Shown piece by piece: positions 2,782-19,229 of a stretch of 64,000 bases of DNA; position 1 is the first letter of the stretch, and each line of letters opens with the position of its first letter. The stretch is from the IMG/VR virus record IMGVR_UViG_3300027974_000020, positions 105,198 through 169,197 of that record; one strand, 5' to 3'. The translations under genes were made by a program, and so were the position numbers. Source of the DNA: a virus. A model generated the notes under the pieces. That model made no database searches, was not told the DNA's origin, and saw only the letters and a list, made by a program, of their open reading frames with translations.

Positions 2782-2852
2782 AAGAAGGCTCTTCCATGGT
2801 AGTGCATGGGAGAGCTTTCTTTTTTATGGCTAGGTATAAGACATCTAGCTAT
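2782..2852 (+). promoter_or_regulatory. terminator + CTAG element, copy 1
   Basis: GCTCTTCCATG/CATGGGAGAGC hairpin, T-tract, then ATGGCTAGGT-ATAAGAC-ATCTAGCTAT. Confidence 0.75.
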
Positions 2853-2905
2853 GTCTCATCAGATCGACATTAACTGTCTGTGACCCCAGCGTAGGTAGTG
2901 GCTGG
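2853..2905 (+). ncRNA. candidate pseudoknot leader RNA, copy A
   Basis: GTC..GAC stem; loop CAGAT pairs with downstream GTCTG; then TGACC and a hairpin. Homologous to copies at 7953, 8746 and 9460. Confidence 0.6.
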
Positions 2906-2967
2906 ACAACACACTGCTATGGAGACACGCGTGCCATATATAACAGCGTGTAATAAGGAGGTAGCTT

Positions 2968-3252
2968 ATCGCTGCTATAACACAAGGTAAGACAGTTACA
3001 TTCAAGCAAGTTGATGATATCATCAATTCTGCCGCTAAGGAATACCGGGTTTACCACTACAATGGTGGACAGGTCTTCATCCGTTTAAGCGCGTTGGATA
3101 ATATGATGATGGTTATCGACCATTCAACAGTAGACATTACAGTTGAGTTGTTTGACGGAACTGCATACTTGGCTGCATATGCCAATAACAACACTGAATA
3201 CAGCAACCGTTTTATTGCTGCGCCATCACAATTGGCTGTGTTGTTTGCTTAA
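2968..3252 (+). CDS. 94-aa hypothetical protein with putative ATC start (absent from ORF track)
   Basis: TAAGGAGG SD, 6 nt, then ATC. The frame (IAAITQGKTV...LAVLFA) is open to TAA at 3250-3252, just before the next terminator. Confidence 0.7.
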   Translation: MAAITQGKTVTFKQVDDIINSAAKEYRVYHYNGGQVFIRLSALDNMMMVIDHSTVDITVELFDGTAYLAAYANNNTEYSNRFIAAPSQLAVLFA

Positions 3253-3260
3253 GTAAGTAA

Positions 3261-3331
3261 TAAAGAAAGATACCCTGGGGTCTTCGGACCCTGGGGTTCT
3301 TTTTTTATGACTAGGACAAAGGTCTTATGTC
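3261..3331 (+). promoter_or_regulatory. terminator + CTAG element, copy 2
   Basis: cTTCGg-loop hairpin, T-tract, then GACTAGGAC-AAAG-GTCTTATGTC. Confidence 0.8.
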
Positions 3332-3356
3332 AATACTCTCTAGGAGGGGAGTAGAT

Positions 3357-3626
3357 ATGAATATGAAAGACAAACTAATAATGGCAATAATTGCAGTATT
3401 ATCAGTGCTTGCAATTGTTAGCTTTGTAGATGCAAGTAACAACCCAGTATCCTGCCAAGTTGACAGTTTGGTAGCGACATATGGAGATACCTATTGGACA
3501 TTGAGCAGTGATGCTGGTTGTGTTGGTGGGTATGATAAGCAAAGTAGGGTTGGGCAGATAATTGATCTTAATGGAGGTTCTGCGGATCTCCGTCATGGTC
3601 AATTGGTAATATTCCCAACTAAGTAA
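3357..3626 (+). CDS. membrane-anchored LysM-domain protein (YneA/ChiZ-like architecture)
   Basis: N-terminal TM or signal peptide, then a GDTYWTLS...IIDLN...LRHGQLVIFP LysM pattern; AGGAGGGG SD. Confidence 0.75.
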   Translation: MNMKDKLIMAIIAVLSVLAIVSFVDASNNPVSCQVDSLVATYGDTYWTLSSDAGCVGGYDKQSRVGQIIDLNGGSADLRHGQLVIFPTK

Positions 3627-3644
3627 ATTAAGTAAGTAAACCCA

Positions 3645-3718
3645 AAAAGAATTCCCCGAGCTGGTACCCTCTGCCAGCTTGGGGTTTTCTTTTTATGACT
3701 AGAGCTCAGGCTTTAGTC
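3645..3718 (+). promoter_or_regulatory. terminator + CTAG element, copy 3
   Basis: CCCCGAGCTGG/CCAGCTTGGGG hairpin, T-tract, then GACTAGAGC-TCAG-GCTTTAGTC. Confidence 0.8.
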
Positions 3719-3830
3719 GGGCTATAAGCGTTACGCCCTGAAAGTAATGCACCGGTCGTTGGCTACCGTAAAGCTAACACCTGTTGCGCAATTTGGGACT
3801 TTCTCTCCCAAAAAAACAGGAGGAATACTA

Positions 3831-4154
3831 ATGATTACAATGATCATTATCGCAACACTCATGGTTGTGGCTGCAGTTGCAGTTACAGTCTGCGTGATGC
3901 AGCAAAAGGCAATCGTTCTGATCAATCAGATCAAGAACCTCATCGTTCAATTGAGCGAAGAGAAAGCAAAAGCAGCCAAGGTTCTTTCCGAAAAGGAACA
4001 AGAACTGAGGGAAGCCAAGGATACAGCACGCCGTCATTTAAATGATTGGAATGCTCTCTACTTGGAGAAAAGGGCAGCTGAAGCCAAAAAGGCAGAAGCA
4101 GCAAAGAAGACAGAAGCGAAAGCTACTGTAAAGAAGACCAAAACAACCAAATAA
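3831..4154 (+). CDS. membrane-anchored coiled-coil protein with Lys/Ala-rich tail
   Basis: AGGAGG SD before ATG 3831; N-terminal TM followed by a charged helical region. Confidence 0.75.
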   Translation: MITMIIIATLMVVAAVAVTVCVMQQKAIVLINQIKNLIVQLSEEKAKAAKVLSEKEQELREAKDTARRHLNDWNALYLEKRAAEAKKAEAAKKTEAKATVKKTKTTK

Positions 4155-4188
4155 GACAAATTAGGGAAAGTCCTAATTGCGCAACAAC

Positions 4189-4250
4189 AAAAGATGCCCT
4201 GGGGGTTAACACCCCTGGGGTTTTCTTTTTATACCTAGAACATAGGTCCT
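4189..4250 (+). promoter_or_regulatory. terminator + CTAG element, copy 4
   Basis: Hairpin, T-tract, then ATACCTAG-AACATA-GG. Confidence 0.7.
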
Positions 4251-4279
4251 TATAATAAGTGAAGGGAGGTGAAATAGAA

Positions 4280-4453
4280 ATGGAAAACGCTAGGAATGGC
4301 ATATTCCCACATAAGTGTGGATGGCCATCCTGTGAGTTTGTAGTGGAATTGGACGATGAGCCCAATTGCTTTACTCATTCACCAGACAGCGGCAGTTCCG
4401 AGGTCGGCTACTCTGCAAGGAGAGATGCTGAACGCGGAATCGTACGGTTCTGA
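4280..4453 (+). CDS. small Cys/His (putative zinc-binding) protein
   Basis: GGAGGT SD before ATG 4280; C-x4-C...C-x2-H. Confidence 0.65.
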   Translation: MENARNGIFPHKCGWPSCEFVVELDDEPNCFTHSPDSGSSEVGYSARRDAERGIVRF

Positions 4454-4520
4454 TGGGATGGCAGCCAACTGACTAAGAGTCGGGGCAGATGAATAGTGCC
4501 TGGCAACAGAAACTATCATG

Positions 4521-4588
4521 AAAGAATAATCTCAGGGGTTAGCATCCCTGAGATTTTCTTTTTATGACTAGGGAAAAGGTCTCTAGTC
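4521..4588 (+). promoter_or_regulatory. terminator + CTAG element, copy 5
   Basis: AATCTCAGGG/CCCTGAGATT hairpin, T-tract, then GACTAGGGA-AAAGG-TCTCTAGTC. Confidence 0.8.
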
Positions 4589-4682
4589 TGGTTAGCAGAC
4601 CATAATCTGTTTAGCCGTAGCTGTACATACGGTGCCAGCGTGATGGGCGCATCCCATCTTTATGATTTCTTAAGGAGGAATC

Positions 4683-4973
4683 ATGTTCGGCATCATATTG
4701 CTACAAAACTGGTTGACTTTTGCGATATTCGCAATTTTGATATCAGTCTCGGTAATGATCATTATCGAGGAAACAAAAGGTAAAGGTATCATTAACACTA
4801 TCCTATACACTTTAGGATTTGTGTCACTGTTGTCTTTATGGCCTGTATTTAATATCTATACAGCCATACCTATCACAAACGATAATAATTTATTATTTAT
4901 AATAGCTTTATTTACAACATATTTTGCTCTGGTATTTGCTGGAACAGAGTTGATGGATAAAGCTACAAAATAA
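4683..4973 (+). CDS. hypothetical membrane protein (3 TM)
   Basis: TAAGGAGG SD; hydrophobic segments. Confidence 0.75.
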   Translation: MFGIILLQNWLTFAIFAILISVSVMIIIEETKGKGIINTILYTLGFVSLLSLWPVFNIYTAIPITNDNNLLFIIALFTTYFALVFAGTELMDKATK

Positions 4974-5025
4974 TAAAAAACTAGAATACTTTAGTTGTAC
5001 AGAGCTAAAGTTTTCTTACCAAACT

Positions 5026-5090
5026 AAGAAGTCCTTGGGGTTAGCATCCCAGGGATTTCTTTTTTATGCCTAGTGGATAGGTCACTAGGT
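5026..5090 (+). promoter_or_regulatory. terminator + CTAG element, copy 6
   Basis: Hairpin with GTTAGCA loop (as in copy 5), T-tract, then CCTAGTGG-ATAGG-TCACTAGG. Confidence 0.8.
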
Positions 5091-5139
5091 AGGCAATCTT
5101 ATTATGCCTACAAATAATAAGAGGAAGGGGAGCCTCATC

Positions 5140-5325
5140 GTGTCTGACACCTTGAAGCGCTTTCCTACCCTGACCTTACAATGCGCAGACACAATCTGCT
5201 TCATTTGTAAGACAGAAACCAAAGTCAATGGGGATACCAACCCCTATGACCTTGGTTTTGCCAGGGTAGGTGGCAACTCCGCCAACGGGTACGAGATCTA
5301 TCACATCTCGTGCTGCAACGGCTGA
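5140..5325 (+). CDS. small putative zinc-binding protein
   Basis: AAGGGGAG SD before GTG 5140; CFIC...HISC. Confidence 0.6.
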   Translation: MSDTLKRFPTLTLQCADTICFICKTETKVNGDTNPYDLGFARVGGNSANGYEIYHISCCNG

Positions 5326-5385
5326 GTTAGCCTAATACTGGCCACCTGTGCCTGTCTCATAACTGGGGGACATTAAACTACTCAG

Positions 5386-5455
5386 TGAGAGGGTAGCCCA
5401 AAGCATTAGCTAGGGCTACCCTCTTTTTATATGACTAGGAGAAAGGCTTCTGGTT
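5386..5455 (+). promoter_or_regulatory. terminator + CTAG element, copy 7
   Basis: GAGAGGGTAGCCC/GGGCTACCCTCT hairpin, T-tract, then GACTAGGAG-AAAGG-CTTCTGGTT. Confidence 0.8.
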
Positions 5456-5483
5456 AAACCAAACATACAACAAAGGAGAAACC

Positions 5484-5753
5484 ATGCGTACATCACCACG
5501 CTGTGTTGGTATAGTAAAACCAACAAGTAGGCGAGTGTTAAAGAAGGGGTTGGAGAGGTATCCTCAGATAAAGGGGGATGTAACTCAACAACGGTGCTTA
5601 AAAAGTATCAACTGCCCACACCACAGGGTTGCTAATGCTAGAATTATGGAGCTTCCATTAGAAGAACCATATGTAGAGCTAACAAGAGAGCAAATAAGGC
5701 AATTGATTAACATCGGTTACATGGCTGAAACAGGCCGTCCATACTACTTATAG
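5484..5753 (+). CDS. hypothetical basic protein
   Basis: AAGGAG SD; 89-aa ORF. Confidence 0.65.
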   Translation: MRTSPRCVGIVKPTSRRVLKKGLERYPQIKGDVTQQRCLKSINCPHHRVANARIMELPLEEPYVELTREQIRQLINIGYMAETGRPYYL

Positions 5754-5777
5754 ACCATAGGTCAAAGGAGAATAACA

Positions 5778-6905
5778 ATGAAATCATTAAAGCGTTTATT
5801 AATAATCTCTACTGTTGCAATTTCTTTTATTGGGGTCAATGAAAGTTCTGCTTCAGCTAGAAATAACAAATGTGTAAAAGTTGGCACATTTAAAACGGCA
5901 GTAAAAGTTAAGTACGAATGCAAGAGATTGACCACAGGTCTCAGATGGGTAAAGGTACAAACAAAAGTTGTACCAACAACACCTGCTGAAGTTATAATAC
6001 CAATACCAACTGATTGGTCAAATATTGAAAAGTATGCACAAAACATACCATACGCAGCATGGAAGGCAAGTGTTGGCGCGATCACCACTGGTATGCCTCA
6101 GATGCCAACAGTGAATATCATTAATGGACCAAATGCCCTTATAGCTTATTCAACTCCGGAAGTTAAGATTAATTTAACATCACGTTTATTTTCATCTGCA
6201 AAGCAACTTTCGCAGGTAAATATTATGCGTTTTGGGTATGATGATATTGGATGGGCTAATTCAAAGTGGTTAGAGCAATTTAATGGCCAAGATAATTCTG
6301 TTCCAAGAGAAATATTCGATACGTGTAAAACTACCACGACATGTTGGGGTGGCATTTCGCGCAATACCAAAAGTGGAATAGCTTGGTTTGCTTTGGCAAC
6401 AATGAAAGATAATCTATCTGAACCTAAACTTGTAAACGGGACTAACTACGCGCACTCATATGCTCATGCAATCCAATACGCAGCACTGTCTGAAATACCA
6501 GCACAAAGACTGCCAAGATGGTTGCTTGAAGGAGTTGCTACTTATTCACAAGCTGCTGTTGAAGGCATGGTAAGTTTTGATTTATACAAGTCTGAACGCA
6601 CAAGAGAAACAGGAGGATTAAATAACTCTCTTGAATGGCTTGAATCATTTCTTGCCCCAACAGGCAATGATTGGTCTCATTGGAACAAATATACTGGTAA
6701 TGATTCTTGGAGAGTTTATGATGTTGGTTTTATGGCAACCGAAGCGTTAGTAGCCCTCAGAGGACCAAACACTGTAATGAGTTTGTATACAAAAGTAGGA
6801 AGTGGTCAAACTTTTGATCAAGCGTTTAATGAGCTATATGGAATCTCTTGGGCTGAAGCTCACAAGATAATTGCTCGTGTAATTTCCTTACAAATTAACA
6901 AATAA
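5778..6905 (+). CDS. secreted gluzincin-like protein, catalytic Glu apparently lost
   Basis: Signal peptide; HSYAH in place of HExxH, followed by PRWLLEGVA and a YDVG motif. Confidence 0.6.
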   Translation: MKSLKRLLIISTVAISFIGVNESSASARNNKCVKVGTFKTAVKVKYECKRLTTGLRWVKVQTKVVPTTPAEVIIPIPTDWSNIEKYAQNIPYAAWKASVGAITTGMPQMPTVNIINGPNALIAYSTPEVKINLTSRLFSSAKQLSQVNIMRFGYDDIGWANSKWLEQFNGQDNSVPREIFDTCKTTTTCWGGISRNTKSGIAWFALATMKDNLSEPKLVNGTNYAHSYAHAIQYAALSEIPAQRLPRWLLEGVATYSQAAVEGMVSFDLYKSERTRETGGLNNSLEWLESFLAPTGNDWSHWNKYTGNDSWRVYDVGFMATEALVALRGPNTVMSLYTKVGSGQTFDQAFNELYGISWAEAHKIIARVISLQINK

Positions 6906-6912
6906 TCTTATT

Positions 6913-6973
6913 AAAGAATAGAGGGTCCTTCGGGGCCCTTTTTTCTTTATGACTAGTGGATAGGCCACTAGTC
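6913..6973 (+). promoter_or_regulatory. terminator + CTAG element, copy 8
   Basis: GGGTCC-TTCG-GGGCCC hairpin, T-tract, then a perfect 9-bp stem GACTAGTGG-ATAGG-CCACTAGTC. Confidence 0.85.
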
Positions 6974-6993
6974 TTTAGTTAAGGAGAAGAGTA

Positions 6994-7320
6994 ATGAAAG
7001 AAATGGAATGGTGTGGATGCATGGATGTGCGTTCATGGAAAGATGGCTTTGCTGATATTTTTAGCAGAGAGTTAGTAGAAGGTAAAAGAAAAGGTGAGTT
7101 GTATGAATTGTTTGAAGTTAAAAGCTTTGAAGAATTTAAGGATGAGTTAAGTGATATTGCATGGGGTGTAGGACGTATTGTTGGTGGTTTGGTTGGTAAG
7201 CCATATGTACGGATTATTGGTGATGCAATACATTACAATAAGGTTGTTTCTCGTATGAATGAATATGGTTGTATGAGGAGCAAGCGATTTCTTATTAAGG
7301 GTGAATGTCCTAATAAGTGA
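6994..7320 (+). CDS. hypothetical protein
   Basis: TAAGGAG SD. EELSD-like DELSDI motif is reminiscent of MazG-like helical proteins (weak). Confidence 0.65.
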   Translation: MKEMEWCGCMDVRSWKDGFADIFSRELVEGKRKGELYELFEVKSFEEFKDELSDIAWGVGRIVGGLVGKPYVRIIGDAIHYNKVVSRMNEYGCMRSKRFLIKGECPNK

Positions 7321-7350
7321 TTTAAGTTAATTAGTAAATAATTGACGGGG

Positions 7351-7413
7351 TATGCCCCTAGGGTCGTTTGATCCTAGGGGTATATTTTTTATGCCTAGTG
7401 GAATGGCCGCAGG
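7351..7413 (+). promoter_or_regulatory. terminator + CTAG element, copy 9
   Basis: CCCCTAGGGTC/GATCCTAGGGG hairpin, T-tract, then GCCTAG-TGGAAT-GG. Confidence 0.75.
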
Positions 7414-7436
7414 TTATAGATTATAGGAGAAGAGAA

Positions 7437-7868
7437 ATGAAAGAGAAAGCAATTATAGTTGATATTGATGGTACTTTGTTTGAAGAGGTGCCAGGTTGGA
7501 CAATGGAGACTGATGCATGGTGGGTGGAAGAAACACTTAAGATGCGTGAGTTGAAAGTTGGAATTGGATTAATTAAAGTATTTAAGGAAATGGGATTTAA
7601 GTTGGTTTTCTTGACAGCAAGAGGACAAAGCTGCAAGAAGAATACTTTGATTAAGTTTAAGGAAGCTGGTATTGATAACTTGGTAGATTCGATGTGGCAC
7701 AGGCCAGTTAAGTGGAATGGCGTGGCACCAGTTGAATATAAGAAGTTCATGATGCAACGGATTATGAAAAAGTATGATGTTGTGTTTGCTATGGATGATA
7801 GCGACAAGAACTTGGAAATGTTTAAGGGATTGGGTATCAAGGTATTTGATGCAAAGAGGTGGTGGTGA
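7437..7868 (+). CDS. HAD-family phosphatase (PNK 3'-phosphatase-like)
   Basis: DIDGT motif I, LTAR motif II, K, and MDDS motif IV; AGGAG SD. Confidence 0.8.
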   Translation: MKEKAIIVDIDGTLFEEVPGWTMETDAWWVEETLKMRELKVGIGLIKVFKEMGFKLVFLTARGQSCKKNTLIKFKEAGIDNLVDSMWHRPVKWNGVAPVEYKKFMMQRIMKKYDVVFAMDDSDKNLEMFKGLGIKVFDAKRWW

Positions 7869-7890
7869 GGTTATTGATAAACCTCAGACC

Positions 7891-7951
7891 AAAGAAACTA
7901 GGGTCCTTCGAGGCCCTTTTTTCTTTATGACTAGGACACAAGTCTTAAGTC
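7891..7951 (+). promoter_or_regulatory. terminator + CTAG element, copy 10
   Basis: GGGTCCTTCGAGGCCC hairpin, T-tract, then GACTAGGAC-ACAA-GTCTTAAGTC. Confidence 0.8.
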
Positions 7952-7952
7952 T

Positions 7953-8001
7953 GTCTATTGGTAGACATAAACTTCATGACCCCACTATTGGTAGTAGGTG
8001 G
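7953..8001 (+). ncRNA. candidate pseudoknot leader RNA, copy B (shorter)
   Basis: GTCTA-TTGG-TAGAC, ATAAAC, TTCATGACCCC, then a hairpin. Confidence 0.5.
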
Positions 8002-8054
8002 CAAATCATACTACCAGGGCACAGCCTTCACTGTGACTAATAAAGGAGAATAAA

Positions 8055-8735
8055 TTGGAAATGAACGAAGAGCCCAAAGCAATGCCAAAGTGGTTGGGTA
8101 AATTCCCAGCCTACATCAAACAATTGTGGTTGGATTCAAACAAAATTGAACCCACACCACCAGTGGAACCATCACTGCCAGCAGAAGGCGAATTTCGTTT
8201 TCTGTTGATTCCACAAAATGACACAAGCAACTCCGAGGCGGTACCGATGTTGGTGCTCATCCAGAAAGTACTTCAAGATGGGTACTTCCAGGTAATGCTT
8301 ACTCATTGTGAAGATGCAATGCAAACATACTCTGATCTTTACGTCACTAGTGGCGAAACAGGTTTGGGGTATGGTGTTTTCATTAGCACCGCAATACAAA
8401 ATCAAGCTAACGTGAATTGCTTGAGCGAAACTGCAGTTGGTAAGTTGATTCCTTCAATGGTACGAGCTAGGGGTACATACAATTTTGGACCTAATGATGA
8501 GTGGCGCAGAGGACGTCGCTTTTCTTCAGATCGATTTGTTGCACAACTAGATCCACGTTGGAAGTTCGTTAATGAACAACTTACTGCAATGCAATACCTA
8601 CTGGGCGCATATGAAGATGAAGGCGATACTCGTGACTCTGAATTGAGCGCAAAACACCAAGCAGAAGACATGAAATCGTTTTACCAAGTTGACCGTGACA
8701 ATGGTGAACTTCTTCCATCGCAGAAAAACAACTAA
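8055..8735 (+). CDS. hypothetical protein
   Basis: AAGGAG SD; 226-aa ORF with a TTG start, or ATG at 8061. Confidence 0.7.
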   Translation: MEMNEEPKAMPKWLGKFPAYIKQLWLDSNKIEPTPPVEPSLPAEGEFRFLLIPQNDTSNSEAVPMLVLIQKVLQDGYFQVMLTHCEDAMQTYSDLYVTSGETGLGYGVFISTAIQNQANVNCLSETAVGKLIPSMVRARGTYNFGPNDEWRRGRRFSSDRFVAQLDPRWKFVNEQLTAMQYLLGAYEDEGDTRDSELSAKHQAEDMKSFYQVDRDNGELLPSQKNN

Positions 8736-8745
8736 GTAAGTAATA

Positions 8746-8800
8746 GGTCTGATTGGATCGACCTTAACTGTCCATGAACCAACCGTTAACCAAGAGGTTG
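8746..8800 (+). ncRNA. candidate pseudoknot leader RNA, copy C
   Basis: GGTC-TGATTGGATC-GACC, TTAACT, GTCCA (pairs with loop TGGAT), TGAACC, then a CAACC/GGTTG hairpin. Confidence 0.6.
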
Positions 8801-8843
8801 TAATTCACATGGTTATTTAATCACAAACAAAAGGAGAAGGATA

Positions 8844-9362
8844 ATGTCAGATAACAAAAACAAATTCCAGTCAAGGCTGGATGCAATCTCAAAGGTTGCA
8901 ATTGTTTTACATGCCTTTGGCACATGGTATGAACTACAAATTGAATCCAGTGACAAAAATCGGTTGACTGATGGGGCACTGAAGTATACACAGCATGTTA
9001 GCTTGTTCCCAAGCAGCAGAACATTGTATTCTTTTGTTGGTGTTTCAGAAGATGGTGCAATTGTCAATGGTTTCATGCATGATGGAACAAGCAACGACAA
9101 TGGTGGTTATGGCAGTGATTCGTTTGAATTGACGATGAAAGATGGATCACACAAAGTCATAACAGGACCATGGAGCTCAAGACCAGGAGTTCATACTGTT
9201 AACAGCGGTATTCAATACACTGAAGTTAGAGTTGGTTATGGTATGTATGGATTCTCAAGGGAATTCATTGAAGCCATAATTGATCGATTTAACCTCGATG
9301 TAAATCTTGACTCAGTAACTTTGGAAGACAAAGAAATTAATCTGAAAGTAACACCTAAGTAA
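8844..9362 (+). CDS. hypothetical phage protein
   Basis: AAGGAG SD; 172 aa with GYG...GPWSS motifs. Confidence 0.7.
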   Translation: MSDNKNKFQSRLDAISKVAIVLHAFGTWYELQIESSDKNRLTDGALKYTQHVSLFPSSRTLYSFVGVSEDGAIVNGFMHDGTSNDNGGYGSDSFELTMKDGSHKVITGPWSSRPGVHTVNSGIQYTEVRVGYGMYGFSREFIEAIIDRFNLDVNLDSVTLEDKEINLKVTPK

Positions 9363-9400
9363 GTAGCAGCGGTGAGCCTGGAGTTAGGTTTCAGGCTAAG

Positions 9401-9458
9401 GAAATTAGGGTCCTTCGGGGCCCTTTTTTCTTTATGACTAGGAATAAGGTTCCAAGTC
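9401..9458 (+). promoter_or_regulatory. terminator + CTAG element, copy 11
   Basis: GGGTCCTTCGGGGCCC hairpin, T-tract, then GACTAGGAA-TAAGG-TTCCAAGTC. Confidence 0.8.
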
Positions 9459-9459
9459 C

Positions 9460-9513
9460 GTCTGATTGGATCGACGTAAAATGTCCATGACCCCTGGTTA
9501 TTGGTTACCCAGG
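9460..9513 (+). ncRNA. candidate pseudoknot leader RNA, copy D
   Basis: GTC-TGATTGGATC-GAC, GTAAAAT, GTCCA, TGACCC, then a CCTGG/CCAGG hairpin. Confidence 0.6.
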
Positions 9514-9576
9514 ACAACTACGTAACCAGAGAGACACTATCTCTCTATAATAAAAAGTGTAATAAGGAGGAATGTT

Positions 9577-9966
9577 ATCAAAGAGCAAATCAACAAAATC
9601 AACCAGGTCACTGATGGTGACAAGGTCAAGTGCGAGCCGTGCTTTGGCACAGGTAAGTACATGAGCAAAACCGTCATCGATGGAACATGTTTCCGTTGCA
9701 AAGGCACTGGTTCAGAAAAAGCAATGTCAATCAAGCAATACAATTTCATCAAGGAATTGTTCATGGCATTGGTGAAAATGAACATCATTGTGAAAGAGAA
9801 CAATGAATGGCATGAAATGGTTAACACCATGAACCAACACAAGGATGGAATTACATTGCGGTCATCCAAGTGGGCATCAGACAAGATTGAGGAATACAAG
9901 GCTCGCAAGAACCGTGTCCTCAAACCTAAGAGGCCAGTGTATTCAGTTACCCACTGTGGAATTTGA
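9577..9966 (+). CDS. DnaJ-type CxxCxGxG zinc-finger protein with putative ATC start
   Basis: TAAGGAGG SD, 6 nt, then ATC in frame with ORF 9661. The extension supplies the first CEPCFGTG, which pairs with CFRCKGTG. Confidence 0.7.
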   Translation: MKEQINKINQVTDGDKVKCEPCFGTGKYMSKTVIDGTCFRCKGTGSEKAMSIKQYNFIKELFMALVKMNIIVKENNEWHEMVNTMNQHKDGITLRSSKWASDKIEEYKARKNRVLKPKRPVYSVTHCGI

Positions 9967-10070
9967 GCAGTGGGATGAACCACAGTGGGTAACTGAAGAA
10001 TGGAAAGCTGGAGAAGATGCAGAGGCTGACATATACTAGCACCGCCAGGTGTATAGGTAGTCATCAAGTC

Positions 10071-10131
10071 AAAGAAGAGGGGGTCCTTCGGGGCCCTCTT
10101 TTCTTTTATGCCTAGGACACAGGTCTCAGGC
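10071..10131 (+). promoter_or_regulatory. terminator + CTAG element, copy 12
   Basis: GGGTCCTTCGGGGCCC hairpin, T-tract, then GCCTAGGAC-ACAG-GTCTCAGGC. Confidence 0.8.
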
Positions 10132-10157
10132 TAACACTCTCTAGGAGGGGAGTAATC

Positions 10158-11609
10158 ATGAAGAATAAACCAACAACAAACAAGGAGGAAACGGTGTATA
10201 AAGACACTGTCTACGCAAAACTGAGAAGGGCACTTTACAATGTCATTCTCGAAGGTAAATTCATGCAAGAAACTCAATGGGACGAGAATGGACGATGCCA
10301 CATGGTTCAGACATTTGGTGACCGTGGAATTATTGCAACAATGCAACGAAAAGCAAATAACAAAGGATGGGTTGTATTCTTTACTTTGTGCATGTACAAG
10401 CACGAGCAAAATCACATTCCATTCATGCGTGATTTGAAAGTTAGATTGACTATCAATGAAACTCCATCTGGAGTAAGATTATTGTGGTTTGTTAATGGTA
10501 AGCCACAATGGATGGTAGAAAGTAGTCAAATGGCTTTCTCAAATAAATTCCATCATACTGGACATATAGTTCAAGAAGTTATTAATCAGATCAAGAGTAT
10601 ATATTCTCCTGAAGATTTTATACCGATCTTGAAGTACATGCAAAATCCAACATGCAAAGAGTATACTTTGTATGGCCTTAACCAAAGGTGGATGAAAAAG
10701 TTATCAGGTGGAACAAACCCTAGGCAAATCTTGAATAAAATCTATGGCAAAGATGGGCAGGATGGGTTGAGCAGAAATGCTTTTGGTTCAAATATTGGCA
10801 AAAAGAGTTTTGCTACATTTGCTATAGCAGCTGAGCTAGTGCGATATTTGAAATCATTTCCTACATCATTCTTTGATAAAATCATTCTTGATGACTTTGC
10901 AGTACAAGATATTGCATACTTGGGGATGATGTATCAAGATGTAACTTACATCCAATATTTCATTAAGTACTTTAATCACAGTAAAATCCAACAAGATTTT
11001 ATTAATGCGATTAATAACTTTGAAATGTATCCACATTCTGATTATGACATTTCAGATGCTACAGAACGTTTCTTTAGGATGAGCATTTGGCAGGAAGCAC
11101 GTGATACCGGCAGGATGTTCAAGGAAATAAAGAACAGAGCTGTTCGGAGAAACATCATTGCACTTAAAGGCACGGTTCAAGAAACCCATGACCTTGTCAC
11201 TATCGAGAATGCAAAGCTAGCTCGAGAAGATAAGCAAATCAAATACAGTGATAAGAGCCTTATCCTGGATGGTCAACAGATAACAGATAATATTATTTCT
11301 GTTCTTCCGAAGACAACGTTTGATTTAATATTATGGGGTTCACAACAGCACAACTGCATAGGTAGCTATGGAGATCGTGTTGCTCGTGGCACAGGTGCGA
11401 TTGTTGTTGGATTCAAAGATGTGACAACAGATACTTGGGTCGGCCATGCTGAACTCAATAACTATTTCAACAGCTTTGGAAGTTCTTGGACAATCATGCA
11501 GTTGAGGGGCAAATATAACTCAAACCTTGATGAGTCAGATGAAACTACTATTCGTTTGTTTCTGGACAACATACTCAATGCTTGGAATGAAGAGTTAGTA
11601 TTGCCATAA
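10158..11609 (+). CDS. PcfJ-domain protein
   Basis: C-terminal HD...LPKT..DL..WG..QHNCIGSY...QLRGKYN pattern typical of PcfJ-like domains. Confidence 0.75.
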   Translation: MKNKPTTNKEETVYKDTVYAKLRRALYNVILEGKFMQETQWDENGRCHMVQTFGDRGIIATMQRKANNKGWVVFFTLCMYKHEQNHIPFMRDLKVRLTINETPSGVRLLWFVNGKPQWMVESSQMAFSNKFHHTGHIVQEVINQIKSIYSPEDFIPILKYMQNPTCKEYTLYGLNQRWMKKLSGGTNPRQILNKIYGKDGQDGLSRNAFGSNIGKKSFATFAIAAELVRYLKSFPTSFFDKIILDDFAVQDIAYLGMMYQDVTYIQYFIKYFNHSKIQQDFINAINNFEMYPHSDYDISDATERFFRMSIWQEARDTGRMFKEIKNRAVRRNIIALKGTVQETHDLVTIENAKLAREDKQIKYSDKSLILDGQQITDNIISVLPKTTFDLILWGSQQHNCIGSYGDRVARGTGAIVVGFKDVTTDTWVGHAELNNYFNSFGSSWTIMQLRGKYNSNLDESDETTIRLFLDNILNAWNEELVLP

Positions 11610-11628
11610 AGTTTTACCTCAGGTAAAT

Positions 11629-11703
11629 AAGAGAGAAGGGTCCTTCGGGACTCTTTTCTTTTATGCCTAGTTCACAGGTCTCAGATCACTGAGGTCGCTA
11701 GGC
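11629..11703 (+). promoter_or_regulatory. terminator + CTAG element, copy 13 (upstream of RNA polymerase gene)
   Basis: cTTCGg hairpin, T-tract, then GCCTAG-TTCACA-GG. The partner CTAGGC is at 11698-11703, beyond an inserted hairpin. Confidence 0.8.
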
Positions 11704-11739
11704 AAGTAATACAAACCAATAAACCCTTAAGGAGGGAAT

Positions 11740-14331
11740 ATGGAAGACCAACCGGTCAAACCGCCCGATGCAGCGGCCAATGCATCAACAAAGGAGAAGA
11801 AGATGCCAAAAGGTATCATCACTTTCCTGAAGGGGCGCTTTCGCGTTCTGACAAATAATCCAACTCCGAAAGAGGAGCAGGCATACAATTTGTCTCAGGA
11901 AACCAATAAGCCAGTCCCGTTTGGACGGATCAAGACTGTTACTGGATACAATTATGTCCAGGACGTCTACGCTGTTCAGACTGGTGACTTCACCTACTCC
12001 TTGTTGGAGAACAAACTTACTAAGCGGGGAATTAAGTTCCGTTTAGGAGTCGTCTCTAACAAGGATCTATCAGAGCTCGTAATCAAACACGAACTGTTCA
12101 GTCTTAATGACATGATCAGTAAGTGCAGGTTCGCATGGGCTAACGCATCATACACCTTCTTCCTGGAGGTTCAAGACAGTAAAGAAGCATCAAGCTTTGA
12201 TCTGTCTGATCTTGGGTTGGAGGTCTATGACTTCAAGAAGACCAGCAAACGTTTGCAGGAAGTGACTCGTATCACTCAAATGCATTCGTCTGGTCCGATT
12301 GGCAAACTTGATTATCGCATGTTGGAAGATCTTCCTGGTGAAGAACTTGCATATGATGGTCCAGTATTTGTCAGCGACTCATTTGCAGTGCGTTCTTGCT
12401 TTAGTATGACTGATGGTCCTGCTAAGAACAAGCACATTGCAATGATCAATCGCGGTAAGATCGGTCCAATGATTGGTCGTATTCTGATGGATCAAGGTGA
12501 AGTTAAGGGCCTTGTCCACGTTGTTCCACGACAACAGCTAGGTGCGGATGTGGTTTTCCACAAATCTGCTCTGAAGCGAGAGTTAAAGACTGACGATGGA
12601 CGTTGGCACTATACTGCCTTCAAACACAAGAACCTCCACACTGCTATGTGGGATATGCAAACTATGTTCAATAACCATACCTGGTTAATGACCAAAGAGC
12701 AATTCACACTGGACATGGAGTCTGTTATCACTGACTTTAACAAGTCTGTTGAGAATGGACAGCTTCCTGACTGGATTATCCACCAGGAAACTGACGGGCA
12801 CAAGGATGACTCAGCTCCACAAGTAGAGCATGTGACATCTGGCTGGAAGAAGAGTTACATCCGCTGGCAACAAGCTGGTTTGGATGTAACTGCATCTAGC
12901 AACCTCGTCTACATGGCTTTCGGATCATTGCTGAACCAAATGCGTTCTGCTTTGAAACGAAACACGTGGTGGGTTCCCATCTCTAATGCCTTTACGGCGA
13001 CAGTAACCACCTTCGATGCTTTGGAGGTCATGGGTAACTTTGAGCTGCCTCAGCACAAACGAGACATGGTGTTCTTTGATGAACGCTTTGGCTGTATTGT
13101 GCCGACTAAGCGGTTCATTGAGACTGCTGACCTTCATGACACGTGGGATCAGGACGGTGACCAAGCTAAGTTCATCCGCATTAAACTGTGGAGTTCTTCG
13201 CTTGTTATGAGCCTTGATGGATACAACCATCCGGAACTCAGGGAAACATATGTCATTCCTGCTGATTTGGTAGTGCCAAGCACTCCTGAAGAGGCAATTG
13301 ATATGTGTGTCGTTATCCGTTCACCAAACGGTCCTGGCGGTTACTCTATCGAACGGTTTGATGCTGAAACGATGCCATGGCTTCGTGTAGCGGAAGATCG
13401 TGTACAGGTAATTGATCTGGCCAAAGCACCAGCTGCAATGAGCACTTTGCTCGTTACAACTGAATGCGGTCAGATTAATAGCTCCACTACCTACAGCAAG
13501 GAATTGTTCAACCGGGATCATGCTCTTAATATGATCTTGGCACAGATGAATAACCCTGGTGTTGGTAGGTACGCTAATCTCATTATGGTTTGGGCTGCAA
13601 CATTTGGTCCAAGCTATCCTGATAAGTTGCCTGCAATTGGTAACGATGTCATTGACTGTGTTCAACAGACCGCAGACCTTGGTTCATTTGTTCAATTGCA
13701 AAGTGACTACTCAGAAATGGCTGAAAGCATTGCTCAGGCGATCATTGACAGCGGTTGTGGTATTGACCGTTATGTTCTTGAGACCCGGTTCCCTGCACTC
13801 AGCGATGAGACACGCCAAATGCTGGTAGATATTGCAGTAGACGGTCAGTTTACTGAGATGTACAACGCATACAATCAAACTATTACAAAGGTGCAAAATA
13901 TCGCATCCAAGGGTAGCTTTGATCTGCGTTTGACATCTGACACTCGTAACAAAGTGTACAATGCAATTCCAGCTATGAGGGAGTCAACCTCTGTTTGGTG
14001 CCGTGGCATCTGGTCAAAGTATGAACGTGAACTCTCAAGGGTTGACGGTAAGTACTCTGAACTGTCCAAGAATACCAATCGCTTTGTAAAGATGTCTGCT
14101 GTTGCACAACGCACAGAAGAAATCTCTACCATCATTGGTGCACTGTTGGATGAAGTCAAGGCAACATCACATCCTGAGCTCTATGCTCTTGCTATCTACC
14201 GTTGGATCATTGATCCGGAACTGACTCGCAGTAAGTATGGCGTGTCTGACCGTATCATCTTCCAGAACGGAATAGACGGACAAGAGACCATCATGGATCT
14301 CATTATCACAGCAATCAAGGACCTGAAGTAA
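11740..14331 (+). CDS. single-subunit two-barrel RNA polymerase (YonO / RNAi-RdRP-like), paralog 1
   Basis: DGPVFVS, GRILMDQGEVKGLV..SALK (DPBB-A lysines), DQDGD (13147-13161), IRSP, GVGRYAN and IDC motifs. Confidence 0.8.
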   Translation: MEDQPVKPPDAAANASTKEKKMPKGIITFLKGRFRVLTNNPTPKEEQAYNLSQETNKPVPFGRIKTVTGYNYVQDVYAVQTGDFTYSLLENKLTKRGIKFRLGVVSNKDLSELVIKHELFSLNDMISKCRFAWANASYTFFLEVQDSKEASSFDLSDLGLEVYDFKKTSKRLQEVTRITQMHSSGPIGKLDYRMLEDLPGEELAYDGPVFVSDSFAVRSCFSMTDGPAKNKHIAMINRGKIGPMIGRILMDQGEVKGLVHVVPRQQLGADVVFHKSALKRELKTDDGRWHYTAFKHKNLHTAMWDMQTMFNNHTWLMTKEQFTLDMESVITDFNKSVENGQLPDWIIHQETDGHKDDSAPQVEHVTSGWKKSYIRWQQAGLDVTASSNLVYMAFGSLLNQMRSALKRNTWWVPISNAFTATVTTFDALEVMGNFELPQHKRDMVFFDERFGCIVPTKRFIETADLHDTWDQDGDQAKFIRIKLWSSSLVMSLDGYNHPELRETYVIPADLVVPSTPEEAIDMCVVIRSPNGPGGYSIERFDAETMPWLRVAEDRVQVIDLAKAPAAMSTLLVTTECGQINSSTTYSKELFNRDHALNMILAQMNNPGVGRYANLIMVWAATFGPSYPDKLPAIGNDVIDCVQQTADLGSFVQLQSDYSEMAESIAQAIIDSGCGIDRYVLETRFPALSDETRQMLVDIAVDGQFTEMYNAYNQTITKVQNIASKGSFDLRLTSDTRNKVYNAIPAMRESTSVWCRGIWSKYERELSRVDGKYSELSKNTNRFVKMSAVAQRTEEISTIIGALLDEVKATSHPELYALAIYRWIIDPELTRSKYGVSDRIIFQNGIDGQETIMDLIITAIKDLK

Positions 14332-14349
14332 TAGGTTCTTCCGAGTAAA

Positions 14350-14452
14350 GAGAGAGAGCCCCTGGGGAAACCTAGGGGTTCTTTCTTTATTCCTAGATCC
14401 TAGGTCTTTAGTTATTATATTAATATTTTTTTTTCCTAGATCTTAGGACCCT
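14350..14452 (+). promoter_or_regulatory. terminator followed by two variant CTAG-N6-GG elements (copies 14 and 15)
   Basis: GCCCCTGGG-GAAA-CCTAGGGGTT hairpin, then TTCCTAG-ATCCTA-GG and TTCCTAG-ATCTTA-GG. Confidence 0.65.
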
Positions 14453-18863: not shown

Positions 18864-18965
18864 TAAACTATAAACAATGATGTTAGCGTGGGTGGTAGAA
18901 CTCTATCTCTATCACCCACACTAATCATAATATTATTTTTTTATTCTAACTCAAAAGGAAATAAG

Positions 18966-19229
18966 ATGAGCACACCAACTGAAGTAGTCGAAATCCAACG
19001 TTGGATGAAAGACGCAGCATGTAAGGGGAACACTGAAGGTGACTGGTTCCCAGAAGCCCCAGGCAATAACTCTGGAGTAAAAATAGCTTTAGCAATATGT
19101 AAAGATTGTCTAGTCAAACAAGAATGCTTTGACTATGCAATAACAAGACCAGAACTATCAGGTATCTGGGGTGGAGTAACATCACGCAAGCGTGGATCCT
19201 TACGAGCCGAAAGGAAAAAAGGTGAGTGA
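18966..19229 (+). CDS. whiB: WhiB-family transcription factor
   Basis: W...AAC...WFP...ICKDC..KQEC...GIWGG: four Cys plus the GIWGG turn. Confidence 0.92.
   Translation: MSTPTEVVEIQRWMKDAACKGNTEGDWFPEAPGNNSGVKIALAICKDCLVKQECFDYAITRPELSGIWGGVTSRKRGSLRAERKKGE

Follow-up and report, generated by a model that had tools for sequence, protein, structure and literature searches.

The gene array described here makes up the hyperplastic region of early genes in an uncultured phage of ~200 kb, and its cassettes are joined by 15 copies of a compact module in which an intrinsic terminator is followed by a conserved promoter-like element. All coordinates refer to the window, i.e., the whole 64-kb stretch analysed, which is part of a 169,197-bp record. 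We assign a probability of about 55% to the reading that the modules combine terminators with non-sigma-70 promoter-like elements giving rise to transcripts with a 5' hairpin, that they are organised like the promoter-early stem-loops (PeSLs) of T4-type phages (PMC2839356, PMC4122927) and that they belong to a two-polymerase programme resembling that of Thermus phage P23-45. Each module would end the upstream transcript and start the next one from a phage-specific promoter independent of sigma-70. Transcription, as judged from the sequence, would begin at the G of TATG or immediately upstream of it, in which case every cassette mRNA would carry a protective stem-loop at its 5' end. Homology for recombination would also come from the repeated ~70-nt modules, a role that PeSLs play in T4-type phages. 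Candidate readers are RNAP1, which is encoded in the array and would form a feed-forward loop, a second polymerase (RNAP2), or an enzyme present at infection.

The module array occupies one block on one strand

All 15 copies lie on the + strand between positions 2782 and 14449, an 11.7-kb block. Our recount agreed exactly with an earlier note on this DNA, which had listed 15 copies: GG is found six bases 3' of CTAG in 13 of them and is replaced by GA in the copy at 2830 and by AG in the copy at 7931. A weight matrix (positions -12 to +14 around CTAG) run over the entire 169,197-bp record returned 15 sites on the + strand (window 2818-14449), none on the - strand and none outside the array block. 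The scan proposed in the earlier note, run here over this record, reveals a motif that is not scattered. The strict pattern TTTATNNCTAG-N6-GG matched 11 times, on the + strand only, against 0.02 matches expected from shuffles, while TTTATGMCTAG with one mismatch allowed yielded 14 copies (2823-14396). Matches to a covariance model of the element, searched in the 64-kb window, were likewise confined to the array block. The motif is conserved, placed upstream of genes in one orientation and limited to one temporal block. The units that it delimits contain one to three genes each, encoding products of 57-863 aa and preceded by strong Shine-Dalgarno sites, which bears out the earlier description of small-gene cassettes.

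Anatomy of the modules

A module spans ~70 nt and consists of an intrinsic-terminator hairpin, a T-run and an element with a 9-bp stem-loop. The conserved element, previously missed, extends over ~30 nt and comprises the T-run, TTTATG, G(A/C)CTAG, N3 and AAAGGYC; the T-run of the terminator doubles as its upstream part. In line with the previous statement that the copies start in a T-tract, usually that of a terminator, the T-run is present in all 15 copies and a GC-rich terminator hairpin precedes 14 of them, five of these hairpins being GGGTCC-TTCG-GGGCCC-like. Overall, terminator hairpin and T-run occur in ~73-75 of 78 copies. About four copies without the hairpin keep the T-run, and for this reason it is counted as part of the element. 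Terminator-like sites are enriched on the + strand (33 versus 12.9 expected). Across the 78 distinct copies, positions -14 to +3 and +9 to +15 relative to the C of CTAG are near-invariant.

Module 1 (2782..2852; + strand, like all others) combines a terminator (2782-2821) and a T-run with TTTATGGCTAG (2823-2833) and a hairpin (2828-2850); it carries the GA in place of GG. In Module 2 (3272..3331), the terminator (3272-3297) is followed by TTTATGACTAG (3304-3314) and a hairpin at 3309-3331, and in Module 3 (3654..3718; terminator 3654-3684, motif 3692-3702) the hairpin (3697-3718) has a 4-nt loop. Module 4 (4196..4250; terminator 4196-4221, TTTATACCTAG 4228-4238) has a short 5-bp hairpin. Modules 5 (4528..4588) and 6 (5026..5090) consist of terminators at 4528-4555 and 5026-5061, motifs at 4561-4571 and 5063-5073, and hairpins at 4566-4588 and 5068-5090, respectively. 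Module 7 (5391..5455; terminator ~5391-5422, TATATGACTAG 5428-5438) forms a hairpin (5433-5455) with four G·U pairs and Module 8 (6920..6973; terminator 6920-6941, motif 6946-6956) a perfect 9-bp hairpin (6951-6973). They are followed by Module 9 (7355..7414; terminator ~7355-7380, motif 7388-7398, hairpin 7393-7414), Module 10 (7900..7951; terminator 7900-7917, motif 7924-7934, hairpin 7929-7951), where AG replaces GG, and Module 11 (9407..9458; terminator 9407-9424, motif 9431-9441, hairpin 9436-9458). Module 12 (10078..10131; terminator ~10078-10098, motif 10105-10115, hairpin 10110-10131) resides upstream of a PcfJ-like gene (10158-11609) and Module 13 (11631..11703; terminator ~11631-11656, motif 11660-11670) upstream of the RNAP1 gene. 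The hairpin of the latter (11665-11703) is a long form, in which an outer GCCTAG/CTAGGC stem encloses an inner hairpin. Module 14 (14358..14405; terminator 14358-14379, TTTATTCCTAG 14386-14396) has a short hairpin (14392-14404). Module 15 (14426..14449) is degenerate and consists of a T-run (14426-14434), CTAG (14436-14439) and GG (14446-14447) without TATG or terminator. The reported placement of one copy before the polymerase gene and two after it was found again, 73 nt upstream and with CTAG at 14393 and 14436 downstream.

A covarying hairpin with sense-strand bias

The second half of the element is a 9-bp hairpin with a 4-5-nt loop. Its first base is the G of TATG, CTAG lies in its 5' arm and GG in the loop. 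Of 12 window copies, all 12 have stems that start at this G, and their z-scores range from -1.3 to -5.2. Paired cells amount to 81-82%, compared with 23-50% when the partner is slid, and the covariation score, to which positions -2 to +6 with +12 to +20 contribute as covarying positions, was exceeded in none of 500 shuffles. Folding is more stable for the sense than for the antisense sequence (-8.8 versus -6.8 kcal/mol, p 3e-5), and the 42 G·U pairs versus 13 A·C pairs point to the sense (coding) strand. Concerted variation is seen in the relative L027, where GTAG replaces CTAG in all six copies and the four copies with a clear stem (8540, 8923, 9112 and 12558 in L027) carry a compensating TAC, TTAC or CTAC in the 3' arm. 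Because the hairpin covaries with a sense-strand G·U bias, its 5' arm is most likely transcribed, and the loop with GG probably belongs to a hairpin in the transcript. Transcription starting at the G of TATG, or before it, appears to fit better than a start at GG.

Initiation at GG is what the earlier note had proposed, the segment from the T-run to CTAG-N5-A being read as a phage polymerase promoter with its start six bases after CTAG. The G residues at +10 and +11 are indeed conserved (91% and 78%), the CTAG-N5-AGGYC spacing is constant even in the long-form copies, where those bases pair differently, and the proposed layout is that of the AR9 and phiKZ virion polymerase promoters with an AT-rich motif, N6 and G+1 (PMC5312081). 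However, an RNA beginning at GG would be devoid of the 5' arm, leaving both the covariation between the two arms and the 3:1 preponderance of G·U over A·C unexplained. Only a requirement for a hairpin in the non-template DNA would evade this objection, and we consider a start at GG unlikely. Late promoters of the phiKZ nvRNAP have the sequence TATG with G as +1 (PMC5312081), and this G corresponds to the position where the hairpin begins here. While the phiKZ and AR9 promoters resemble the modules in being short phage-specific motifs, they differ in that the enzymes are multisubunit and the consensus includes neither a fused terminator nor a 5' hairpin.

It has to be considered whether the DNA itself extrudes the hairpin and an injected polymerase recognises the resulting stem-loop. 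Hairpins serve as early promoters in phage N4 (PMC4496689), QDE-1-type enzymes act on single-stranded templates as judged from PDB titles, and the loop is conserved. But N4 hairpins reside on the template strand, whereas the pairing bias seen here favours the coding strand, and the 9-bp stem with its 4-5-nt loop contrasts with 5-7 bp and 3 nt in the N4 type. A giant T7-like virion polymerase of the N4 type was not detected, which is weak evidence because the PF00940 control was silent in all genomes. Taken together, such a structural promoter strikes us as highly improbable.

In the loop and the 3' arm, the bases A-G-G-Y-C are conserved beyond the needs of pairing, with their spacing kept in the long-form copies. 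A plain stabilising hairpin is therefore not a sufficient explanation. Conserved loop bases are expected of a protein-binding site and would suit an element acting only in RNA. In that case, read-through would yield one long transcript of the array or a small number of them, and the module would serve as an inter-cistronic processing or stability site or its hairpin as the site of an RNA-binding regulator or antiterminator. We regard this as rather doubtful. It is consistent with sense-strand selection on the hairpin and with the presence in the module of a U-rich single strand flanked by two stems, which is the classical cleavage context of RNases E, J and Y. An endonuclease cutting the U-rich linker would produce an upstream mRNA ending in a hairpin and a downstream mRNA beginning with one. 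The premise is that single-chain two-barrel polymerases may ignore intrinsic terminators, and YonO-type enzymes are described as being without the flap that mediates hairpin-dependent termination (PMC5467207). Also, the module-less relative G001 carries homologous genes in tight operons. On the other hand, ~30 near-invariant nucleotides including the DNA-palindromic CTAG exceed the requirements of housekeeping RNases, a phage endoribonuclease was not recognised, and 14 strong terminators in series would be costly if read-through were intended. Furthermore, no conserved promoter was found upstream of Module 1 except for an AT-rich region ~1.4 kb away, and a bidirectional terminator separates this region from the module.

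Two single-chain polymerases and the candidate readers

The array ends with the gene for RNAP1 (11740..14331, + strand), a single-chain two-barrel RNA polymerase-like protein of 863 aa with a DQDGD motif, and synteny is maintained in that RNAP1 is the last array gene in every module-bearing relative examined. Residues D470, D472 and D474 of DQDGD, a DxDxD metal-binding loop, are invariant in 29 homologues down to 28% identity. In Foldseek, the AlphaFold2 model (pLDDT 86) matched RDR2 and QDE-1 with a probability of 1.0 and E values of 4e-8 to 1e-5, P74-26 gp62 and a phage chain titled 'P32 gp64 RNA polymerase' also with a probability of 1.0, and P23-45 gp96 more weakly, the TM-scores being just 0.26-0.42. 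The model indicates that the gene does encode a QDE-1/RDR2-like two-barrel fold, and together with the invariant loop these matches sustain the earlier view that the array terminates at a two-barrel polymerase gene. With RNAP2, the phage carries two such polymerases of ~850 aa each. The RNAP1 gene lies within the array, so the enzyme could be the first to read the array only if it came with the virion or arose from read-through. A second motif class begins directly after its gene, and RNAP1 more plausibly reads this class.

The motif had been described as free of sigma-70 boxes, and this proved correct. Sigma-70-like sites are not enriched (45 found versus 50 expected) and none coincides with the motif, the conserved core contains no -35/-10 boxes and no TANNNT or TATAAT hexamer in register, and a sigma factor gene was not found in the record. 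It is very unlikely in our opinion that the modules are unusual promoters of the host RNA polymerase, for example of an actinobacterial enzyme redirected by a WhiB-like or other small early protein. The phage encodes WhiB, which suggests an actinobacterial host, and the WhiB family binds region 4 of sigma-A. RNAP1 is itself an array product, so a pre-existing enzyme must act first, and the presence of modules varies between lineages sharing both phage polymerases. Against this stand the core without an in-register hexamer or -35 box and the location of the whiB gene (18888-19229) in the next gene block outside the array, so that its product would be made later.

The preferred reading, a promoter-like module in a two-polymerase programme, has a close counterpart in Thermus phage P23-45, where each of the two two-barrel polymerases has a motif of its own and the first motif class includes the gene of the second polymerase (PMC10770324). 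Both phages have two distantly related single-chain two-barrel polymerases and a first motif class before early genes including a polymerase gene, and in both systems there are relatives without the first class. Among P23-45-type enzymes, the RNAP1 model resembles the non-virion ones, i.e., P74-26 gp62 and the P32 chain, and gp96 only weakly. The two systems differ in that they share no sequence similarity, that neither a tape-measure fusion nor any other virion polymerase candidate was found in the present phage, and that the present motif is distinct and includes a probable RNA hairpin; the P23-45 motifs have been mapped, whereas the starts proposed here are deduced from sequence. The suggestion of an undescribed transcription system holds insofar as lineage and motif had no match in the phage records or literature searched, but phages with two polymerases and motifs of their own are already known from P23-45 (PMC10770324). 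YonO of SPbeta is, like RNAP1, a single-chain two-barrel phage polymerase with a DxDGD-type site; it transcribes a single late operon, for which there is one start site, and no sequence has yet been defined for its promoter (PMC5467207). A sequence relation between YonO and RNAP1 was not detectable.

Hardly any promoters are known for single-chain two-barrel polymerases of the YonO/QDE-1-like kind, and mapped motifs exist only for P23-45. The module provides a compact, sharply defined and deeply conserved candidate promoter (~30 nt plus hairpin) in 78 natural variants and sits beside two clonable 850-aa polymerases. If functional, it would constitute a small orthogonal transcription unit, a natural module that unites promoter and terminator with the polymerase. 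As a tentative possibility, QDE-1-like single-chain phage RNA polymerases of this kind may form a new family known from metagenomes only, with the modules as its first defined promoters; these enzymes would recognise the T-run/TATG core plus the hairpin-forming initially transcribed region. A largely host-independent cascade would then run from class I modules to RNAP1, from the AAAAGGGGGG class to RNAP2 and from RNAP2 to the late genes, with the modules doubling as recombination joints of early genes.

Conservation and cassette exchange among relatives

The module consensus is unchanged in phages whose RNAP1 is just 37-43% identical, a conservation that far exceeds that of the DNA around it. 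Two complete relatives, one of 216 kb and the other of 209.7 kb with terminal repeats, have 7 and 15 gene-strand copies of TTTATGRSTAG, respectively, all within the block that immediately precedes the RNAP1 gene. RNAP1 is present in every multi-copy contig whose polymerase region was retrieved; contigs L019 and L026 stop short of it. Both polymerases are encoded by G001 (97% complete), in which modules are absent and terminators upstream of RNAP1 are few, and G002 contains RNAP1 and RNAP2 without the motif. The case of G001 argues that the module is not an obligatory promoter of either polymerase.

Cassette order, the comparison of which in related contigs had been proposed before, differs between relatives with polymerases 90-97% identical, as does cassette content. 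The 3' end is fixed among close relatives and consists of the PcfJ-like gene and then RNAP1. Five of ten homology breakpoints fall into modules, which make up 8.9% of the region (p 1e-3). It is well supported by these sequence comparisons that the modules are junctions where cassettes are gained, lost and reordered, as the earlier note had suspected in calling the motif a homology point for shuffling. Like the present modules with their putative promoter part, PeSLs are small composite terminator/promoter repeats located in a hyperplastic early region; the genes between them are small, have unknown functions and come singly or in small groups, and the repeats act as homology points for insertion, deletion, replacement and reordering of cassettes between related phages. 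In PeSLs, a stem-loop terminator is joined to a host sigma-70 early promoter, while here the terminator is joined to a putative promoter made up of a T-run, TATG and a sequence-specific hairpin. Moreover, the T4-type phages are unrelated to the present phage, which carries genes for its own two-barrel polymerases. The PeSL principle that regulatory modules are recombination joints driving early-gene turnover would thereby be extended from T4-type coliphages to an unrelated uncultured lineage with polymerases of its own. An individual case is the unit of Module 9, which is missing in the relative L036 between the same two genes (88-92% DNA identity). The ends of the short contigs L041 and L042 are assembly breaks at the repeat.

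Number and placement of the modules

Fifteen copies of a composite module, made up of a terminator hairpin, a T-run/TTTATG/G(A/C)CTAG element and a 9-bp hairpin, lie between window positions 2782 and 14449. The strict motif put forward in an earlier note on this DNA is real, with 11 matches against 0.02 expected, and 14 copies fall in the interval when one mismatch is allowed. A weight matrix spanning -12 to +14 around CTAG picked up 15 sites when run over the entire record; every one is on the plus strand and within window 2818-14449. The description of the motif was equally accurate with regard to how many copies have GG, GA or AG, to the T-runs and recurrent GGGTCC-TTCG-GGGCCC terminators, to the positions around the gene for the 863-aa polymerase-like protein RNAP1 (11740-14331) and to the lack of sigma-70 boxes: sigma-70-like sites are not enriched and none coincides with the motif. 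CTAG usage as such was uninformative (observed/expected 0.96 in the array, 0.69 elsewhere), and an Rfam search of leaders and modules returned no known family.

Many public contigs of this phage group, such as L041 and L042, measure 2.7-2.9 kb and stop at a module; the module repeats break up short-read assemblies of these phages. Contigs of 2.7-2.9 kb carrying the RNAP1 gene alone were considered as transcript assemblies that mark start sites. This was rejected because they begin within the T-run or upstream of the terminator, and their ends are therefore assembly breaks at the repeat.

The module combines a conserved sequence with a strand-specific hairpin

The architecture of the module is composite and conserved, and it includes a hairpin that is strand-specific. 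Across 78 distinct copies, drawn from this phage and its relatives and numbered from the C of CTAG, the conserved element exceeds the originally described motif in length, with strong conservation at -14 to +3 (T-run, TTTATG, A/C/G, CTAG) and again at +9 to +15 (A-G-G-Y-C-n-C). The element contains a 9-bp hairpin with a 4-5-nt loop, whose 5' arm reads G-M-C-T-A-G-N-N-N and in which the 'GG' sits at the boundary of loop and 3' arm. When 32 copies are aligned without gaps, 81% of cells pair, compared with 30-50% when the 3' partner is slid, and none of 500 shuffles exceeded the covariation score; a model-based alignment of 42 distinct copies left this picture unchanged. Covariation with the pairing partners is seen at the variable base M and at all three N positions. 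In the related contig L027, all six copies read GTAG, and all four with a clear stem carry a compensating TAC, TTAC or CTAC in the 3' arm. The sense strand folds more stably than its complement (-8.8 versus -6.8 kcal/mol, p 3e-5) and the hairpins hold 42 G·U versus 13 A·C pairs. The hairpin has therefore been selected on the coding strand, most simply because it acts as RNA. Some copies are 'long forms', in which an outer GMCTAG/CTAGKC stem encloses an additional inner hairpin while the CTAG-N5-AGGYC spacing is unchanged; both sequence and structure are thus constrained. About four copies in relatives keep the T-run without a terminator hairpin, and the T-run is consequently part of the element itself. 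We also asked whether the invariant ATG opens a leaderless mini-ORF. A coding constraint was rejected because ORFs beginning at this ATG range in length between 4 and about 40 codons and because invariant bases ignore codon positions.

Each module would end one transcription unit and start the next from a phage-specific promoter. The stem begins at the G of TATG in 12/12 window copies folded. Initiation at this G would provide every mRNA with a 5'-terminal stem-loop lacking an overhang, a classical protection from 5'-end-dependent decay. Such a start would fit the rule for the phiKZ non-virion polymerase, whose promoter is TATG with the G as +1 (PMC5312081). The earlier note had placed the presumed start at the GG, which matches the rule of the AR9/phiKZ virion polymerases (motif, N6, then G+1; PMC5312081) but leaves the covariation of the hairpin unexplained. 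It is also possible that the module is an RNA-only processing site or a regulator-binding site. With regard to the enzyme that would read the modules, host RNA polymerase has no recognisable boxes there, and the array itself encodes RNAP1. Among described systems, that of phage P23-45 comes closest: each of its two two-barrel polymerases has a promoter motif of its own, the gene of the second polymerase belongs to the first motif class, and some relatives are without the first motif (PMC10770324). The modules are a real, conserved and previously undescribed family of cis-elements, which extends the known ideas of phage-specific promoter classes and of mobile regulatory cassettes resembling the promoter-early stem-loops (PeSLs) of T4-type phages.

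Cassettes are exchanged at the modules

When the arrays of relatives with 90-97% identical RNAP1 were cut at the modules and the pieces clustered, the window read. G E I. K H A A B B C D F, and four related contigs read E G J K M L H A A B C D F (L053), E G L J N H B C D (L054), O P E I B A A B C D F (L057) and E G J N H B C D F (L059), C being a PcfJ-like gene and D the RNAP1 gene. The 5' part is variable in content and order while the 3' end is fixed. The adjacent genes 6994-7320 and 7437-7868 share 92% and 88% DNA identity with genes of the related genome G003, despite only 37% identity of RNAP1. A module lies between the two genes in the window and in contig L019, with differing terminators and stems, and none is found there in G003. 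The modules make up 8.9% of the region and contain five of the ten independent homology breakpoints (p 1e-3). These comparisons show that the modules serve as joints of recombination. Breakpoint clustering and cassette turnover of this kind have been described for T4-type PeSLs, where cassettes likewise vary and breakpoints fall at regulatory joints (PMC2839356, PMC4122927).

Seven modules are present in G003 (complete, 216 kb) and 15 in a further relative, G004 (complete, 209.7 kb, terminal repeats); in both they lie on the gene strand throughout and are confined to a block ending at the RNAP1 gene. The genome G001 (97% complete) and its clade encode both polymerases, have few terminators and no modules, and arrange homologous early genes as tight operons. 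The module is thus conserved where present, and neither polymerase depends on it as an obligatory element. An RNAP1 tree, built to see if the modules were lost in a nested way, gave no clear branching order. TAYCATCTAG sites in G001 were considered as a diverged module but number only two.

The PcfJ-like protein (window 10158-11609; PF14284, E 2e-11) is encoded by the sole sizeable gene common to the module-bearing genomes and missing from G001. In module-bearing phages it always directly precedes RNAP1, and it is missing from the related genome G002 as well. As a specificity factor for the module it is not convincing, because contigs L032 and L033 carry the gene with no module found in their sequenced flanks and because a PDB search with its structural model (pLDDT 87) gave no clear fold match.

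Two distant polymerase paralogues

RNAP1 found no match in Pfam, PHROG, PDB sequences or GenBank phages. Its 77 homologues are metagenomic and unannotated, and D470, D472 and D474 (DQDGD) are invariant across the 29 homologues compared. An AlphaFold2 model (pLDDT 86) matches RDR2 and QDE-1 (E 4e-8, probability 1.0), P74-26 gp62, which is a polymerase of a Thermus phage, and a phage chain titled 'P32 gp64 RNA polymerase', and only weakly P23-45 gp96 and gp66 of the crAss-like phage phi14:2. The 853-aa RNAP2 (23563-26124) is a distant paralogue with 18% identity, and in all genomes examined there are just these two paralogues, separated by about 11 kb. Between lineages, identity is 61-69% for RNAP2 versus 37-43% for RNAP1; judged by these values RNAP1, encoded within the shuffled array, evolves much faster. 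Searches with an RNAP1-family profile and the RNAP2 protein revealed no third or virion polymerase in the record studied (G000) or in G001, G003 and G004. The record has no match to the sigma-70 r2 family and none to the T7-type polymerase family, the latter a weak result as its control matched nowhere.

A second motif class and structured leaders

Right after the RNAP1 gene begins a second motif class, AAAAGGGGGG, with seven copies on the plus strand only (14550, 14603, 15449, 16193, 17021, 17344 and 23036), the last of which precedes the operon containing RNAP2. ATTCTAAA occurs 20-97 nt upstream of four copies, in three cases within about 50 nt. Relatives carry GGAATAAGT(C/G)GGG or AAAAGTGGGG at corresponding places, and the class differs by lineage, with GGAATAAGTCGGG in G003 and G001 and AAAAGTGGGG in G004. 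This position suggests a candidate promoter class read by RNAP1. In the minus-strand block, a k-mer search for a motif of late genes gave nothing specific.

The long 5' leaders share a structured RNA element (GTCnnATTGGnnGAC ... TCATGACCC ...), with copies at 2850-2960, 7950-8040, 8745-8830 and 9455-9575. It has no Rfam match and is also found in the module-less relative L038; the copy at 9460-9570 is 89-90% identical to pieces at other positions in contigs L036 and L026. The cassette genes at 2968 and 9574 have apparent ATC starts, 5-6 nt past an identical GTGTAATAAGGAGG ribosome-binding site, and an in-frame stop at 2962 lies just upstream of the ATC at 2968. Only when read from ATC does the 9574 ORF give a weak, sub-threshold Pfam match to the DnaJ CXXCXGXG zinc-finger domain (E 0.004, 17.8 bits versus a 32.7-bit cut-off).

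Genome setting

The linear record of 169,197 bp (estimated 80% complete, 35% G+C) ends with the window as its final 64 kb and plus-strand block, while genes in the first ~104 kb lie on the minus strand. Among these, outside the window, are giant ORFs of 3505 aa (G000:C1:21353-31867), 2212 aa (G000:C1:36994-43629), 1922 aa (G000:C1:4801-10566) and 1515 aa (G000:C1:10570-15114), none with a polymerase signature; residues 1255-1513 (~260 aa) of the first match PHROG 20474, annotated 'endolysin', and the last has a match to a family of virion structural proteins. G+C is 38-47% in the early and polymerase block (window 2-26 kb) and about 23-42%, mostly 28-38%, elsewhere in the window. The window encodes a WhiB-family transcription factor (18888-19229, E 1e-14), as do close relatives, which suggests that the host is an actinobacterium and that host RNA polymerase is used to some extent.

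An AT-rich region at 1316-1386 (…TTATTTTTTTTATTTTTAATA…TACTATAAGG), immediately 5' of ORF 1387-1776, is kept in module-less relatives (L038 5678-5764, L032 4086-4169, L033 about 3857) and is a candidate host-type promoter heading the early block. Downstream of the same ORF lies a bidirectional terminator (1796-1826).
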